A stretch of DNA of 64,000 bases, taken from positions 32,001-96,000 of the IMG/VR virus record IMGVR_UViG_3300042868_009121. One strand, written 5' to 3'. Numbering within the stretch: the first letter of the stretch is position 1; every line of letters starts with the position of its first letter. The position numbers were made by a program, and so were the translations under genes. The stretch is from a virus. Below are positions 9,564-33,225 of this stretch, piece by piece. The notes below the pieces were generated by a model. The model was not told the origin of the DNA, searched no databases, and worked only from the letters and a program-made list of their open reading frames with translations.

Positions 9564-9650
9564 TACCTGAAGTGGGACTTGAACCCACACGAGCTTTTTC
9601 TGCTCACAAGATTTTAAGTCTTGCGCGTATACCGATTTCGCCATCCAGGT
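9564..9650 (-). tRNA. tRNA-Leu(TAA)
   Basis: Acceptor ACCTGGA/TTCAGGT, anticodon arm CAAGA-CTTAAAA-TCTTG, long variable arm, GGTTCAAGTCC T-loop. CCA not encoded. Confidence 0.93.
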
Positions 9651-9658
9651 TTAAAGAG

Positions 9659-9815
9659 CTGTCAGGGGAGGAGTCGAACCTCCATGCTGCAATTCAGTAT
9701 TAGACAAAATAGCCGGCTTTGTGGTCAACCCATATCTAAATACCTATCTTGTTTTTCAGCGCCCACGAGACGAGTGGGTGTGTATGCCGCGTAGCTACTC
9801 TTTCACCACCTGACA
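9659..9815 (-). tRNA. Enlarged tRNA-like RNA (157 nt), GTC (Asp-like) triplet in the anticodon loop
   Basis: Perfect acceptor TGTCAGG/CCTGACA with G discriminator. T-arm GGAGG-TTCGACT-CCTCC. Anticodon arm CCCAC-TCGTCTC-GTGGG. Expanded D-loop and ~75-nt structured variable region. Confidence 0.75.
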
Positions 9816-10733: not shown

Positions 10734-10742
10734 GTAGCCTTG

Positions 10743-10816
10743 TTGACCCTCTCGGGCTTGAACCGAGGACCCACAGATTATGAGTCTGTTGCTCTAACCA
10801 ACTGAGCTAAGGATCA
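10743..10816 (-). tRNA. tRNA with CAT anticodon (elongator Met or lysidine-Ile2)
   Basis: TGATCCT/AGGGTCA acceptor, TAGCTCAGTTGGTTAGAGC D-arm, ACAGA-CTCATAA-TCTGT. Lacks the three initiator G-C pairs. Confidence 0.92.
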
Positions 10817-10828
10817 ATCTTGATTCAG

Positions 10829-10900
10829 AGCCCCCGCCCAGAATCGAACTGAGTTATCGTGATTACAAGTCACGCGCATCGCCAGCAATGCTTAAGGGGC
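10829..10900 (-). tRNA. tRNA-Thr(TGT)
   Basis: GCCCCTT acceptor, CGTGA-CTTGTAA-TCACG anticodon arm, GTTCGATTC T-loop. Confidence 0.88.
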
Positions 10901-10902
10901 AT

Positions 10903-10931
10903 AAAAAAGGGAAGTCATTTCTGACCTCCCT
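10903..10931 (-). terminator. Intrinsic terminator after the putative ncRNA
   Basis: AGGGAGGTCA-GAAA-TGACTTCCCT followed by a T tract. Confidence 0.75.
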
Positions 10932-11218
10932 ATAAATTGATGGGAATAACGATTACCCATAATCCATGGACAGACCCCTTTTCACCCATAGTCCACAAAG
11001 ATGATCAGTCTAAGTGTTGAGACTAGTTGGATTGACTACCAACAACGCCTGCGGAGATCGTCATGATTTTCTTCGGCGTATCCAGAGCACTTTTAGGTTG
11101 CGCATTCTACCTTTAGTGTTGGTGGTTTTAACTCATCTGTCTGTGAAACCCAACTCAATAGCTTTTCAGCTATCTTATTAGTGCCTTAATCCCTCTCAAG
11201 GATTTATTCGGCCACATT
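10932..11218 (-). ncRNA. Unassigned structured ncRNA (~285 nt)
   Basis: GC-enriched, no ORF in the track, lies between tmRNA and tRNA-Thr. Several hairpins (GATAGCT-GAAA-AGCTATT, AATCCT/GGGATT, GTTGG/CCAAC, ACGCC/GGCGT, TAGTCT/AGACTG, ATGGG/CCCAT) plus a long-range pairing. Confidence 0.65.
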
Positions 11219-11226
11219 TTTATTTT

Positions 11227-11614
11227 TGGTGGAGATAGTGGGATTCGAACCCACGTCTCCGAAAGAGACAATAATACTAACGTCTCACATGCTTAGTACT
11301 GCTTGCGCTGCACCGTAAGGGCTGACTTGTTATGGTCGGATCCACCACTTGATTTTATGACTATCAAGAAAACAATCTACAGTCCTTATTTAACGAGTCG
11401 ATCGTGAATACTCGGAGTAGTTCTGTTCCTAGGTTACTCACCCGAGTTTGACTAGGCAGCTACTGCGTAGTCAGCACCAACGAAAGACATTGCGTCTTCG
11501 AAAGTGAATGAAGATAATTCTTCAGCGTTTATTGTTTAGTATCTTCTAAGGCAGTATACTCAAATGCCTGCATGTAGTATTACCTCAACATTCGGATCGA
11601 TACCGGTTATCCCC
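11227..11614 (-). ncRNA. ssrA: tmRNA
   Basis: 5' GGGGATA pairs with 3' TATCTCC-ACCA, giving the G3-U alanine identity pair. T-arm GTGGGTTCGAATCCCAC. Tag ORF after ATAAAC reads AEELSSFTFEDAMSFVGADYAVAA* (11526-11452). Confidence 0.93.
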
Positions 11615-11935: not shown

Positions 11936-12142
11936 TTACTTTACTGGAATCTCGTGTGCAGATTGACCGGCACCTACTGCATCATTTAATTGAGCAGAAT
12001 CAGTTACTACATTTACAGAGTCAACTGGAGCTACTACTGAATCTACAGGAGCTACAAGTGAATCAGTGGCAGGAGTCTCACCAGAACCACCACAAGAGGC
12101 AAGCATAACAAGCATTGCCATAGCGATAACCATCTTTTTCAT
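11936..12142 (-). CDS. Small lipoprotein with DS-rich repeats
   Basis: Lipobox LASC followed by repeated (V)APVDS. Confidence 0.75.
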   Translation of the reverse strand: MKKMVIAMAMLVMLASCGGSGETPATDSLVAPVDSVVAPVDSVNVVTDSAQLNDAVGAGQSAHEIPVK

Positions 12143-12226: not shown

Positions 12227-13417
12227 TTATTGTCCCTTACTAGGAAATTTAGTCCAACCATTGATCCAAGTAGGCATAGCTAATTCAGGAATAATAACAT
12301 CAATCTCTTTATTACCTTTTCCTAAAGCTAGTGTTTTAAGTTGATCATTAGTTAGGATTGTTGTTGCTTTACTAATAAAGTTTTGAGTTGGATTGAATGC
12401 ACCTACTGAATTATTTTCAAATATAGATACACCGTCTTTTATTGCTTGAGCTGTTTCATTACTTTCTAAACTTAATCCACCTTTTATCCAACCGTAGATA
12501 GCACTATTCTTTACTGTAAATTGTGTAGCTCTTCTAAACCTTAAACCTAGATTGTGGTTCGCTAATGCGGTTTGATTATTAGGTCCAACTAATACCATTC
12601 CAATTAATTTAGGATGCGTAAATGGTTGTGCCAGTGAGCCCACACCATCATTATCACATTCTACACCATTACCTGCGTCACCGTTGTCTACAAACAAAGG
12701 ATCACGTTTTGCAATACCATTTGTTACAGTTCCAGTGTAACCAAAATCAAAGTCAAAGTCATCATCTGCTGTAGCATACGCATAAAGATTTTTTGGAGAA
12801 ACAGTTCCGCCAAAGAATTCAAATGCATCATCGTTAGCATAGATTGTTTGTACATTTTCAATTATAGTACCAGAACCTACACCACCTAAAGTAAGTGCAT
12901 TAATTTCTGAGTTAGGTAATGCGGCAATTCCTGCATATTCAATACGAACATACTTCAAAATACCACTGTTGTCTCCATCATCATTACCACCAAATGGACG
13001 ACCAATACCACCTTCAATAGTTGGTTCTGATGAACGATTAGTTTTTGCTTTGCCTAATATTACAATTCCACCCCAGTCACCAGGAGACCTCTCGCCGGCG
13101 ATTTTTCCTGAGGTAAAAATGATTGGTTTTGTTGCTGTTCCTTCTGCAATAATCTTTGCACCTCTTTCGATACATAAAGCACCTTTTTCTGCAATATCAC
13201 TTTTAATTACAGTTCCTGCTTGAATAATTAATGTAGCACCTTCTTTAACATAAACGTATCCTCTTAGAGTCCATTCTTTGTCAGAAGTAAGAGTTGTAGT
13301 TATTGTAATGTTACCCGTAATTGTTTTGTCAGTAGGTACATTTATAGGTGGATCTATAGGTTCTTTTTTACAAGCAAATAAACCGATAATTACTAAAAAT
13401 AAAATTAGCTTTTTCAT
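12227..13417 (-). CDS. Surface lipoprotein, beta-helix-like, partner of the TonB-dependent receptor
   Basis: Lipobox LFAC; PGDWGGIVILGKA, DNSGILKYVRIEYAG, EINALTLGGVGSGT, DDAFEFFGGTV, DDDFDFDFG motifs. Confidence 0.8.
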   Translation of the reverse strand: MKKLILFLVIIGLFACKKEPIDPPINVPTDKTITGNITITTTLTSDKEWTLRGYVYVKEGATLIIQAGTVIKSDIAEKGALCIERGAKIIAEGTATKPIIFTSGKIAGERSPGDWGGIVILGKAKTNRSSEPTIEGGIGRPFGGNDDGDNSGILKYVRIEYAGIAALPNSEINALTLGGVGSGTIIENVQTIYANDDAFEFFGGTVSPKNLYAYATADDDFDFDFGYTGTVTNGIAKRDPLFVDNGDAGNGVECDNDGVGSLAQPFTHPKLIGMVLVGPNNQTALANHNLGLRFRRATQFTVKNSAIYGWIKGGLSLESNETAQAIKDGVSIFENNSVGAFNPTQNFISKATTILTNDQLKTLALGKGNKEIDVIIPELAMPTWINGWTKFPSKGQ

Positions 13418-15663
13418 AAATTCAAATTAAATGTTAATGAAATTGATTGTTCGTTATTTGTTTTAATTAAATTGCCTCTTGATTTTTGATAATAAACAGA
13501 TGGTTGGGCAAGTATATCACCTACTGCTAATTTTATTTCTCCTTTACCTACTTTACGTAAGAATACTAAATCTATAACATCTCTAGAGTTTTCAAATATA
13601 TCATCGTATCCTTGAAAACCTACCGCAGATATTCTATCTCCAACTCTGTTATAAGAAATGTTAAACGTATTTTTTCCTTTATGTAAATTCAATCCACCAT
13701 TTACAACATAATTAGATTGTCCTTGTAATTGTCTTTTTCTTCCATTAACAATAACTTCAGATTTAACTATAGAAGTATTAGTATAAGCATCTAACCAATT
13801 AGTTATTTTTTTACGAAATTCTATTTCAAATCCAGCAACTAATGCTTGATCTGGGTTCAAGTAAGTTAATAATAGGTTTGATGGTACAGATCCATCTGCT
13901 ACTATTTGTTCAATTGGCTTTTTAAAGTCTTTAATAAAGAAAGCGGCAGATATATTTTCACCTTGTTTAGGATAGTATTCTAATTTAATATCAATATTGT
14001 ATATATCTGTTTTTTCTAAATTAGTATTACCCAATAATTGAGCATTACGTACAAAATCATAATAAGCAAAATTAGCCACTTCTCTAAATTCAGGTCTTGC
14101 TAATGTTTTACTAGCAGATATTCTATATTTGAATTTATCCCATTCATAAGAAAAGTTTACCGACGGTAAAAAGTCTAAGTACTTCCTATTTACATCAACT
14201 TTTTGTCCACTAAAATCTGCAGTATTAACATTAAACAAATTATATTCTGTTCTTAAACCTGCATTTACTTTCCAACCATTTAACTCGCCTTCATATAAAG
14301 CATACGCACTCGCTAAATCAAAATCTGCTGAATACTTGTCTGTGTTGTTAGTAATTTCATCTAACATGTCTATAGAAGTATATCTAAAGATTCTAGCTTT
14401 GAAAGTTCTATATTTTTTAATATAGCTTGAACCCATTTTAAAATTACCTAGTTGTTTATTCACACTAGCATTTAAACCATTTTCATCCATATCACTCCAG
14501 AAACGATAAGTATCTCTCCATGCTGTTGCATAAGGTTCATTAACACCTAATGATTTAGTTATTGGATTAATTCTATAGTCTGGTTGTTTTCTTATCATTA
14601 AGTTATATCCTACATTAAAATCAAAAGTTTTAATCTTGCCATCAAATTGTGAATTGATCAATGTTTTAATTATATTGTTAGATGCTGTACTTCTTACATC
14701 TTGAACATTATCATAATTTTCACCATTACGAGTTAAATACGTTTGTTCAACTTGATGATTAAATAATGTTTTCCAACTATACTTATTCTTTCCTGTATAA
14801 GTAATATTAGTTAGTGCATTTAATAATTGCACCTTACTAAATGAAGTATCTTTATATTTGTAAGCTAATTCAGTTGAAGATTGATAATCTTGTCTATCAA
14901 TGTAGTTTAATTGGAATGTATTTCTTGTTGTTGAACTAAATAAAAAGTTCCACTTATTTCTTTTTAAACCAAAAGACATTGATCCATTTAAGTTAGGAAT
15001 GGATTTAAATTGTTTGGCGTCTGGAGACTTTATAAGGCTTGTATAATTCCTTTTCTCTGTGTTTGTGCTTACGCGGTAAGTGTATGTGGATGGAAATTGA
15101 GTGGGGACGGTCGTATAATCCACCAATTTGAAATTTTGGGAAGTTGATACGGCCCCGTAGTTCATTCCGAGGCCTAATGAGAAAAAATCATTGGACACAT
15201 CTTTTGTAGTTATTTGAACAATACCTCCTGCAAAATCACCGGGTAAATTAGCTGTAGCTGACTTTGCTACTATGATATTATCTATAAGTCCTGAGGGAAT
15301 AATATCAAATGAGAATGCTCTACGATCAGGTTCTGTTGAAGGTAAAATGGTTTTATTCAACATAGCAGAGTTATATCTGTCTGCTAAACCTCTAACCAAT
15401 ACAAATTTATCGTTCTGTATAGTAACACCATTAACTCTTTTGAGTGCGTCACCTACACTACGGTCAGGAGTCTTTTTTATAAATTCAATAGAAAGACCAT
15501 CAGATATAACAGAACTATTTCTGATACTATTAACAACGGCAATATTGGATTCTTTCTTTTGTACAGAACGAATTGTAATATTGTCTAGTTTTTGATTAAA
15601 AATTGTGTCTTGAGAAAATGACAGAACCGGGAATAGTAAAAATAATAACGTTTTTAATTTCAT
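13414..15663 (-). CDS. TonB-dependent outer-membrane receptor
   Basis: Signal peptide; plug motif ALKRVNGVT...VRGLADRYN...FDIIP...LPGDFAGG; barrel motifs LARPEFRE and GNTNLE; amphipathic C-terminal strand. Confidence 0.9.
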   Translation of the reverse strand: MKLKTLLFLLFPVLSFSQDTIFNQKLDNITIRSVQKKESNIAVVNSIRNSSVISDGLSIEFIKKTPDRSVGDALKRVNGVTIQNDKFVLVRGLADRYNSAMLNKTILPSTEPDRRAFSFDIIPSGLIDNIIVAKSATANLPGDFAGGIVQITTKDVSNDFFSLGLGMNYGAVSTSQNFKLVDYTTVPTQFPSTYTYRVSTNTEKRNYTSLIKSPDAKQFKSIPNLNGSMSFGLKRNKWNFLFSSTTRNTFQLNYIDRQDYQSSTELAYKYKDTSFSKVQLLNALTNITYTGKNKYSWKTLFNHQVEQTYLTRNGENYDNVQDVRSTASNNIIKTLINSQFDGKIKTFDFNVGYNLMIRKQPDYRINPITKSLGVNEPYATAWRDTYRFWSDMDENGLNASVNKQLGNFKMGSSYIKKYRTFKARIFRYTSIDMLDEITNNTDKYSADFDLASAYALYEGELNGWKVNAGLRTEYNLFNVNTADFSGQKVDVNRKYLDFLPSVNFSYEWDKFKYRISASKTLARPEFREVANFAYYDFVRNAQLLGNTNLEKTDIYNIDIKLEYYPKQGENISAAFFIKDFKKPIEQIVADGSVPSNLLLTYLNPDQALVAGFEIEFRKKITNWLDAYTNTSIVKSEVIVNGRKRQLQGQSNYVVNGGLNLHKGKNTFNISYNRVGDRISAVGFQGYDDIFENSRDVIDLVFLRKVGKGEIKLAVGDILAQPSVYYQKSRGNLIKTNNEQSISLTFNLNL

Positions 15664-16736: not shown

Positions 16737-17852
16737 TTATTTTTGATTTTTACTACCTTCTTGAGTGGCGTATTTTATACCCATAATTGTTCCAACTATT
16801 GAAAACGCATTTGTCAATAATACACTAAACATGTTACTCCAAGTAGAGCCAATAATCTGTGTATCCTTACCAGTAAGCATTGCCATCCAATACAATGTAG
16901 TTGTTACAACACCTACGCCAATAATAACTGCTAATGCAACTTTTACAATCACCTTAATTAACTCGGATTGACTTTTTTTCATTACCACATCTAAATCATT
17001 TAACGCAGCATTTTTTTCTATTTCAATTGCGTCTTTCAGTTTTTTAGAGTTATCCAATTCAATTTGTAAATCTTTTGATAGGGCATCTATCTTGTTTTTA
17101 CTATTGACAGCTTCAGTAACATCAGTAGCAATTTTGATTACATTTGTAACATTTCCTTTGCTGTCAAAGACTGGATTATAGGTGGCTTGTAAATAGATAG
17201 TAGAGCCATCCACTTTTTTTCTTTCAAATATTCCGTCAAAAAACTTGCCGCTTTTTAAGGATTTCCAAAACTTACTATACTCATCTGATTTTGAATACTC
17301 ATAAGTTACAAAAATACTATGATGCTTTCCTATCACTTGGCTTTTTTCATTTGATCTATATCCCATGGTTTCTAAAAACACAGAATTAGCATCTACAATA
17401 AAACCATTAATATCAAAAGTAATAGTTGCAGTACTCTTATTAATTGCGTCTATCTGTTTTTTACTATTTACAATCATAGTAATGTCAGTAGCAACTTTCA
17501 TTACTTTAGTAATTGTACCACTCTCATCGTAAATAGGATTGTATGTTGCTTGTAAGTTGATAAGACTACCGTCTCTTTTCCTTCTTTCAAATTCTCCTTG
17601 ATAGTATTTACCACTTCTTAATATATCCCAGAACTTTTCATATTCCAATGATCTTGCATAATCTTCACATACAAAAATACTATGGTGCTTACCAATAAGT
17701 TCTGCATGCTCATCTGCACCATATCCCATTGCTTCTAAAAATATTGCATTAACACCTAAAATTTTTCCAGTTAGGTCAAAATAGATGATAGCATTGCTAC
17801 GATTAATCGCTTCAAGCCTACTTAGTAATTCTTCTTTAGATAGATTTTTCAT
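16737..17852 (-). CDS. Tandem PAS/PAC-domain protein with C-terminal coiled coil and two TM helices
   Basis: Two BdlA-type PAS repeats (AIIYFDLTGKILGVN..FL..MGY...IGKHHSIF...FW..L..G....GEFER...DG..I.LQATYNPI.D..G....V.K.ATDIT). No MCP or kinase output domain. Confidence 0.88.
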   Translation of the reverse strand: MKNLSKEELLSRLEAINRSNAIIYFDLTGKILGVNAIFLEAMGYGADEHAELIGKHHSIFVCEDYARSLEYEKFWDILRSGKYYQGEFERRKRDGSLINLQATYNPIYDESGTITKVMKVATDITMIVNSKKQIDAINKSTATITFDINGFIVDANSVFLETMGYRSNEKSQVIGKHHSIFVTYEYSKSDEYSKFWKSLKSGKFFDGIFERKKVDGSTIYLQATYNPVFDSKGNVTNVIKIATDVTEAVNSKNKIDALSKDLQIELDNSKKLKDAIEIEKNAALNDLDVVMKKSQSELIKVIVKVALAVIIGVGVVTTTLYWMAMLTGKDTQIIGSTWSNMFSVLLTNAFSIVGTIMGIKYATQEGSKNQK

Positions 17853-31593: not shown

Positions 31594-33225
31594 TTACATT
31601 CCCATAGTCATGTCCATCATAGGATCTGACTTGTCATTTTTTTCTTTCTTTTCAAATACAACAGATTCAGTTGTCAAAATAGTTCCTGCTACTGATGTTG
31701 CATTCTTAAGTGCTGTAATAACAACTTTAGCTGGATCAATGATGCCTGATTCAAACGCATCTACCATTTTATGATTCTTTGCATCATAAATTTTATTTTT
31801 TACTAATTCGCTTGGAATATAATTCCACCAGTCTTCTACACCAGCATTAGATAAAATCTTAATAAATGGTGCTTGTAAAGCATTGCGAACAATATCTCTA
31901 GCGATTGCTACATTGCTATTGCTTTCTGCTCTATGATTAAGTGCTACTCTATAAAGTGTTGCACCACCACCAGGTACGATACCGTCAGCAAGAGCTGCTT
32001 TAGTTGCAAATAATGCATCTTCTACACGATCTTTCTTTTCTCTAATCTCAATATCACTATTACCACCTACAGAAATAATTGCAACACCACCAATCAACTT
32101 ACCAAGTCTTTCTTGCAACTTCTCTTTCTCGTAGAACGATGTAGCTTTTTCAATTTGCTCTTTTATTTCTTCTGCTCTAACTTCAATCGCTCTCTCATTA
32201 CCTTTACCATCAATAATAGTAGTCTCTTCTTTAGATACAGTTACAAGTCTTGTTGTACCAAGATATTGAGCGAGTTGCTGTGTAGATAATTTATCAAGCT
32301 TCAAACCTTTATCTTTAGAAATAACTTGTCCACCTGTCAAGATAGCAATATCTTCTAAGATTAATGTTTTACGCTCACCAAAGTCTGGTGCTTTAACTGC
32401 GCAAACTTGTACAATACCACGCATTTTATTTACAATTAATGTAGCAAGAGCTTCATCACCAATATCTTCAGCGATAATTAATAAAGGTCTATTCTCTGAA
32501 TTTGCTTTAGTCAATACTTGTAACAACTCTTGTGCAGTTGAAATACGTCCATCATATAAAAGAATATATGGATTATCAAGCACAGATTGCATTGTTACAT
32601 TGTTAGTTACAAAGTAAGGTGATTTGTAACCACGATCAAATTGCATACCTTCAACAATCTCTAATGTAGTTTCACCAGTTTTAGATTCTTCAATAGTTAC
32701 TACACCTTCACGACCTACTTTATCAAGTGCTTCAGCAATTAAGTTACCAACTTCAGGATCATTATTACCTGAGATAGTTGCAACTTGTTTAATTTGCTCT
32801 TCTGAAGAAATTTCTGTTGCTAATTCTTTAATTTCTTTTACTACTTCATTAACGATATTGTCAATCTCATTCTTAATCTCAACAGCGTTAACGCCTTGAC
32901 GAATTTCTTTAAGACCTTGTTTAATCATTTCAGTAGCAAGAAGTGTAGATGTTGTTGTACCATCACCTGCTTCATTTGCAGATTTAATACTAACTTGCTT
33001 AACAAGTTGTGCACCAAGATCTTCAATATCATCTTCAAGTTTATGAAATGCTTTAGCTACTGTTACACCATCTTTTGTAACTTTAACTTCACCATTTTGT
33101 TCACGAATTAATACTGTGCGACCACCAGGACCTAATGTTGATGATACTGATTGATTTAACTTTTCTATACCGGAAAGTAACTTTTCTTTAAGCTCTGTTC
33201 CAAAAACGTTTTTTGTTGTACTCAT
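31594..33225 (-). CDS. groEL: Chaperonin GroEL
   Basis: [55 protein letters not shown]. Confidence 0.97.

Follow-up and report, generated by a model that had tools for sequence, protein, structure and literature searches.

A probable enlarged relative of the manA RNA in the tmRNA/tRNA clusters of Bacteroidota-type myoviruses

The stretch of viral DNA considered here, referred to as the window, encompasses 64,000 nucleotides (positions 32,001 to 96,000) of the IMG/VR record IMGVR_UViG_3300042868_009121. Its minus strand harbors a 78-aa ORF, a tmRNA gene (11614..11227, called by ARAGORN and by Rfam at 69.7 bits), a gap of 326 nt without annotated feature, the genes for tRNA-Thr (10900..10828) and tRNA-Met (10816..10742), a 99-aa ORF and, further on, tRNA-Leu. 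The initial annotation had described the gap, between tmRNA and tRNA-Thr, as a GC-enriched and ORF-free stretch that ends at a terminator, and these points are confirmed. The GC content of 0.42-0.45 exceeds that of the flanks (about 0.30), none of the ORFs on the RNA strand exceeds 33 aa, and the stretch folds more stably than its shuffled versions (z -3.2). A second GC-rich segment of the window (9650-9815; 0.44-0.48) is found just upstream of tRNA-Leu on the minus strand and carries no Rfam or ARAGORN call.

The gap contains a genuine and conserved gene that specifies a folded non-coding RNA about 290 nt long. Its core, as delimited by conservation in the family alignments, begins with the 5' strand of a closing helix, P1, and ends with the 3' strand of that helix (11222..10932, minus strand), with the tmRNA gene directly upstream and probably on the same transcript. 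A terminator scan places an intrinsic terminator at 10931..10903, consisting of a GC-rich hairpin of 10 bp, capped by a GAAA loop (10931..10908), and a U run. The terminator begins 1-3 nt after the P1 3' strand, and tRNA-Thr starts 1-2 nt past the U run. Across the family the sequence of the terminator stem varies freely yet stays paired, and a U run follows it in most members; the hairpin is missing in L082 and L114, and the U run behind it in L088 and L089.

The phage itself is a myovirus, and encodes a tail sheath, a GroEL, a DNA polymerase of family A and a ribonucleotide reductase. Among cultured phages, Flavobacterium phage immuto comes closest, with 56.6% in the polymerase, and no manA-type match was found in it. 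The genes that neighbor the RNA in related phages include Bacteroidota-style lipoproteins and a T9SS-sorted protein, and the carriers as a group are probably myoviruses of roughly 170-185 kb that infect Flavobacteria or other Bacteroidota. Other genes of the window phage encode a TonB-dependent-receptor-like protein (Plug plus beta-barrel; 12227-15663), a double-PAS protein (16737-17852) and the GroEL (31594-33225). Small lipoprotein genes are scattered as inserts, one at 11936-12142 of the window and another between tmRNA and RNA in a relative (L087:12804-13202).

Among 50,697 phage records the stretch has no blastn match in a cultured phage, and of 80 related contigs collected via the neighboring 396-aa protein only one carries the RNA. 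Homologues were sought by short conserved motifs, in four scans of viral contigs and one of metagenomes, each checked by nhmmer, and amount to about 58 loci with full or partial copies, all in phage or metagenome contigs and mostly from lake metagenomes. When 185,579 bacterial and archaeal genomes were scanned for the pattern, nine matches came up, all of them chance by nhmmer. Two complete relatives with terminal repeats (G001 and G002, 173 and 174 kb) hold one copy of the RNA each. A non-redundant set of 47 family sequences makes up the alignment (A5) that is used below. This manA-like RNA is absent from Rfam and from the literature searched, and with the family missing from Rfam its genes go unannotated in phage genomes.

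A coding function does not fit this family. The core lengths of its members span all three modulo-3 classes and the window copy differs by a 1-nt indel from a relative that is 96% identical, so there is no conserved reading frame; an antisense 55-aa ORF (11014..11181, plus strand) is not kept among the relatives. It might instead be supposed that the stretch is a functionless trailer of the tmRNA or the remnant of decayed tRNA genes, given how quickly the content of tRNA arrays changes, but this is scarcely credible for an element that is maintained over the roughly 58 loci, down to about 70% identity, that contains long invariant stretches as well as compensatory changes in almost all of its helices, and that shows nothing of a neutral substitution pattern.

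The structure model that was tested on the 47-sequence alignment comprises 88 pairs, these being the RNAalifold consensus together with one pseudoknot. Within it paired cells make up 97.5%, and in 37 of the pairs both sides have changed, a number that none of 500 shuffles reached and that falls to 3-10 when the partner is slid by 1-3 columns. Many pairs also switch state repeatedly on the family tree, up to 15 times. The initial annotation had proposed a complex, multi-stem RNA and had named its hairpins, and the conservation and covariation found in the 47 homologues bear out most of what it listed: GCC/GGC around AATCCTT..AGGGATT, the GAAA hairpin, CACT/AGTG with GGT/ACC, ACGCC/GGCGT, GTTGG/CCAAC and ATGGG/CCCAT. 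The hairpin TAGTCT/AGACTG, in contrast, finds no support, since covariation pairs TAGTC (11025..11021) with GACTA (10993..10989) around a hairpin with the loop CTGATCA. Of the two long-range pairings that had been offered for one loop, that with GTCTGT is upheld by complementary swaps in relatives, whereas that with TCATCTTTGTG is without support.

All features of the fold lie on the minus strand. P1 joins the A-rich 5' strand UAAAAA (11217..11222) to the 3' strand AAUUUAU (10932..10938), which follows right behind the terminal hairpin, in the same place as the ]]]]] strand of the manA model. In a cognate-duplex test, duplexes between the 5' flank and the 3' tail of the same member are stabler than non-cognate ones (permutation p 0.0005), with clear swaps in L114, L134/L147, L105, L141 and L131, all but the last of them complete. 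Next to P1 stands the P2 module (11183..11215), in which GUG, a 3-bp GCC/GGC stem, a GAAUA internal loop, a 7-bp hairpin and UAA succeed one another, and which cmscan places on manA positions ~18-60. Its pairs 23-25/50-52 and 31-37/41-47 are 100% paired, seven of them with changes on both sides. The following stem, CUAAU/GUUGG (11150..11181; helices 4-5), bears a hairpin capped by a GAAA tetraloop of the GNRA type; it has seven both-side-change pairs, and on the tree pair 64/75 in this region has undergone 15 or more state changes.

A long-range helix between GACAGAU (11135..11141) and GUCUGUC (10969..10975) closes a five-way junction. This helix (columns 94-101 with 279-285) is 99.7% paired and occurs as GACAGA/UCUGUC, GACGGA/UCCGUC or GACGAG/CUCGUC, all three complementary, with at least 3-4 independent switches between them. 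Within the junction, hairpin H4 (CACU..AGUG with inner GGU/ACC; 11088..11118; helices 10-11) is replaced in the most distant members, as by the swapped CGUU..AACG hairpin in L114, L116 and L127. Hairpin H5 (ACGCC/GGCGU; 11045..11079; helix 13) holds a loop of 26-28 nt, and hairpin H6 (GUUGG/CCAAC; 11026..11043; helix 16) the loop UAGUCAAU, with at least seven state changes at pair 211/226. The stem H7 (UAGUC/GACUA; 10989..11025; helices 17-18) surrounds hairpin H8, whose 7-nt loop CUGAUCA (11008..11002) contains the self-complementary UGAUCA; GAUCA is invariant in the 47 sequences, and UGAUCA is present in all but one.

The terminal hairpin AUGGG/CCCAU (10940..10960; helix 20), which cmscan places on manA positions ~163-183, carries the 11-nt loop UAAUCGUUAUU. 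AUCG in this loop (10953..10950) pairs with CGAU in the H5 loop (11060..11057; YGAU across the family), and this pairing represents the pseudoknot helix 15 (columns 193-196 with 301-304). Its pair 193/304 is C-G in 12 sequences and U-A in 35, is unpaired in 0/47, and has switched at least three times. Covariation does not separate contacts within a molecule from contacts between molecules, and this one could equally be an intramolecular pseudoknot.

The RNA belongs to a gene cassette that is variably present among related phages. A contig near-identical to the window phage (L002; 97% in the 396-aa protein) lacks the RNA together with tRNA-Thr and tRNA-Met. Blastn blocks and an alignment of the junction show that a 488-nt cassette (11228..10741, minus strand) is precisely absent, such that the tmRNA 3' end is joined to the base after tRNA-Met (L002:11905-11920). 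Each edge of the cassette coincides with the 3' end of a tRNA-like acceptor stem, a pattern suggestive of tRNA-type genes being gained or lost as modules. Relatives without the RNA retain the same tmRNA.

Among the 53 loci with enough flanking sequence, 39 have a tmRNA on the same strand within 500 nt upstream, 28 of these within 100 nt; in five others the tmRNA is further off or downstream, and in nine there is none. The spacing between RNA and tmRNA ranges from 0 to 430 nt, and in L082, L131 and L147 the RNA lies upstream of the tmRNA. The link to the tmRNA could represent gene order inherited within one phage lineage and not function. Where a gap precedes the RNA, many relatives (such as L133:900-945, L154 and L167) have a conserved box, formed of a small hairpin (UGCGG..CCGCA) and then TATATTTATATAC, 10-20 nt before the RNA. 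The TATATTTATATAC box has a promoter-like look and recurs after the RNA terminator in many relatives. In the window phage, the upstream box TATATTTATATA, which precedes many members, was considered as a promoter and rejected, as it is not enriched in the window (6 found, 5 expected). Some members have a further conserved hairpin, about 46 nt long (GUACUUAGC...GCUAAGUC, inner CCUGG/CCAGG), directly 5' of the RNA, as at L081:1107-1152 on the minus strand; it is carried also by L084, L099, L116 and L156, and is found behind the TATATTTATATAC box in L099, L116 and L156 and behind the tmRNA in L081 and L084.

What stands downstream differs among members and may be tRNAs, the 99-aa ORF, lipoprotein genes, the gene of a T9SS-sorted protein or else ORFs that run on the opposite strand, and such variety makes a cis-regulatory role unlikely. 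If the RNA were a cis-acting riboswitch or attenuator, its ligand-dependent folding would set read-through into tRNA-Thr and tRNA-Met, a notion to which the tight abutment of P1, terminator and tRNA-Thr lends itself, as does the listing of the manA motif as a riboswitch candidate (PMC2864571, Weinberg et al. 2010). Nevertheless, we regard it as quite improbable: besides the changing downstream content, the terminator hairpin or its U run is dispensed with in the four members named above, no conserved alternative pairing was seen between the RNA and the terminator arm, and manA RNAs are reported to form cages and not to bind a known ligand (10.64898/2026.07.01.735769).

A catalytic RNA, either a permuted RNase P-like molecule or a self-cleaving ribozyme, might be expected to process the tmRNA-tRNA precursor, as the RNA stands between genes whose ends need processing. 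Within it, GGGUGAAAAGGGG and GUUAAAACCACC resemble, to the eye only, the conserved purine-rich joints of RNase P RNA. This proposal is nonetheless very improbable. Models of RNase P, introns and small ribozymes all fail to match, even when E-values up to 10 are admitted, many members lie 40-430 nt from the tmRNA behind their own conserved upstream box, and the same tmRNA is kept in relatives without the RNA. Identity with RNase P RNA itself finds no support, as its models give no match at that threshold and the GGAAAGUCC core is absent from the sequence.

The initial annotation had left the RNA unassigned. This holds insofar as Rfam gives no match at gathering score in the window stretch, but it does not hold for the family, in which the manA motif (RF01745) recurs in 15 of 16 members with its modules in the same order. 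The window copy scores 12.9-15.3 bits against RF01745, below the gathering cut-off of 55.2, and 15 of the 16 other members tested match the model at 17.1-32.8 bits, always on the RNA strand and over the full model. The best E-values are 6e-7, when L149 is searched by itself, and 5e-5, in a search over 31 kb. None of these relatives reaches the gathering score, and for comparison the true manA RNA of P-SSM2 scores 181.6 bits.

The cmscan alignment of L149 matches the 5' module of manA, composed of the GUG-C-UGAAUAA internal loop, the hairpin and UAAGG, a motif that is invariant or covarying in the 47 members. It also matches the terminal hairpin with its GGG/CCC pairs and 11-nt loop beginning UA, a loop length shared with 80 canonical manA RNAs. 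As in manA, a helix closes the 5' end onto the segment after the terminal hairpin; it is A/U-rich in the family, as opposed to GGGAG/CUCCC in manA. A GNRA-capped hairpin is likewise common to both, and so is the pairing of four nucleotides of the terminal loop with the loop of another hairpin. Each of the 80 canonical manA RNAs examined from IMG/VR contains, in the hairpin region before the terminal loop, a 4-nt segment complementary to loop positions 4-7, and in the ACAU class this segment switches along with the terminal loop, which fits the L8-L9' kissing loop seen in manA by cryo-EM (10.64898/2026.07.01.735769).

The two RNAs differ chiefly in the center and in their setting. The family RNA is about 290 nt long, compared with about 190 nt for manA, and its alignment to the model takes insertions of 41 and 120 nt mid-model, with mismatched central stems. 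Where manA has a six-pair stem that encloses a GUGGUG-loop hairpin and a second hairpin, and then a long hairpin, the family has the five-way junction; one hairpin appears to have become a junction with four extra hairpins, one of them bearing the invariant UGAUCA loop. The central ~170 nt have no manA counterpart, and the mapping of the junction onto the penultimate manA hairpin relies on one cmscan alignment. Both RNAs are borne by phages, which are freshwater Bacteroidota-type myoviruses for the family and cyanophages or Photobacterium carriers for manA. The family RNA has its own terminator and is found behind a tmRNA or among tRNAs, with tRNAs or varied genes downstream, whereas manA is found in the 5' UTRs of protein-coding genes; the P-SSM2 copy, for example, sits between regA and purL in a 5'-UTR-like position. 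A tRNA is present within 1 kb on the same strand at 9 of 106 canonical manA loci. Some canonical manA RNAs are directly followed by a same-strand tRNA, namely tRNA-Asn (L191, L217, L234 and L270) or tRNA-Gly (L206 and L265), so the tRNA link is not unique to the enlarged form.

From the RF01745 matches and the modules that recur in the same order within a covarying P1, we infer an enlarged relative of a known motif and not a new class. The RNA is thus likely to be an uncatalogued, stand-alone structural relative of manA, carried by phages, in which the penultimate hairpin has been expanded into a five-way junction of about 170 nt. The alternative, that an independent class of RNA acquired two manA-like modules by convergence or shuffling and not by common descent, is consistent with several observations. 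All RF01745 scores remain under the Rfam cut-off, the central junction has no equivalent, the sequence-only nhmmer profile of the family does not detect the manA RNA of P-SSM2, and in the reciprocal test, for which a covariance model was built on 46 positions of the P2 module, the true manA site came only second, with 9.2 bits and a non-significant E of 0.48. The host range, habitat and genomic setting are also unlike those of canonical manA. We nevertheless consider independent origin unlikely, since 15 of 16 members match the model on the same strand and at full length with significant best E-values, the modules keep their order inside P1, the principle of loop-loop pairing is common to both, and canonical manA loci likewise include those with a nearby tRNA.

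GOLLD and ROOL are phage RNAs that are found near tRNA islands and form RNA-only cages, and the env-38 GOLLD is located downstream of tRNA-Met (PMC12286853). The initial annotation had drawn an analogy with these RNAs, and it stands as far as the setting is concerned, in that a complex, conserved phage RNA is encoded within a tmRNA/tRNA cluster; no relation to either RNA is detectable, however, as neither of their Rfam models gives a match with E-values up to 10. All three are phage-encoded and ornate, often lie by tRNA islands and have no known protein partner, a likeness of setting only, and GOLLD and ROOL are two to three times larger, with other folds and no similarity in sequence or model. 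The phage T4 also encodes small stable RNAs, C and D (species 1 and 2), which are processed along with its tRNA cluster and whose function is unknown. These are shorter than the family RNA, at about 120-140 nt, and to our knowledge are unrelated to it in sequence.

A mode of action can be proposed as follows. Starting a few bases past the 3' end of the tmRNA, the RNA is most likely made on the tmRNA transcript; it would be released upon trimming of the tmRNA 3' end, with its own 3' end set by its intrinsic terminator. In the fold, P1 encloses four elements, the manA-type GAAUAA hairpin, the GNRA hairpin, the five-way junction and the manA-type terminal hairpin, the junction, closed by its long-range helix, occupying the place of a single manA hairpin. 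The molecule may then act in trans as a folded particle, and not as a switch for a neighboring gene. In vitro, manA RNAs assemble into decamers and into a cage of 60 copies (a 60-mer) via kissing loops and a GNRA-receptor contact (cryo-EM preprint 10.64898/2026.07.01.735769). By analogy with the assemblies of manA, GOLLD and ROOL, the family RNA probably self-assembles too, its copies joining through loop-loop contacts, for which the H5 CGAU/terminal AUCG pairing, the self-complementary UGAUCA loop and the GAAA loop of the GNRA hairpin are candidates. It is a tentative suggestion, less likely to be right than wrong, that in infected cells the RNA forms an RNA-only ring or cage whose work is tied to the tmRNA and tRNAs that are made with it. 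Such a cage might shelter or concentrate phage tRNA-type RNAs or parts of the ribosome and, if so, self-assembling RNAs of tRNA islands would constitute a general phage device built on at least three folds, GOLLD, ROOL and manA-like.

For 15 years manA has been filed as a possible riboswitch of cyanophage metabolic genes, until the 2026 preprint reported RNA-only cages. Its core now appears also in a larger, stand-alone RNA that has a terminator of its own and lies within the tmRNA/tRNA clusters of freshwater Bacteroidota phages. This setting is the same as that of the cage-forming GOLLD and ROOL, which argues against a purely cis-regulatory role, and it would bring to three the cage-type RNAs linked to phage tRNA islands, the assembly of the family RNA being proposed by analogy. 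For structural biologists, the family offers a larger natural variant of manA with clear candidate contact loops.

The tmRNA that accompanies the RNA has features of its own. The two complete relatives, G001 and G002, contain no SmpB gene, so their tmRNA would depend on the SmpB of the host. In the window, the tmRNA (11227-11614) encodes a long tag of 24 residues that ends in YAVAA.
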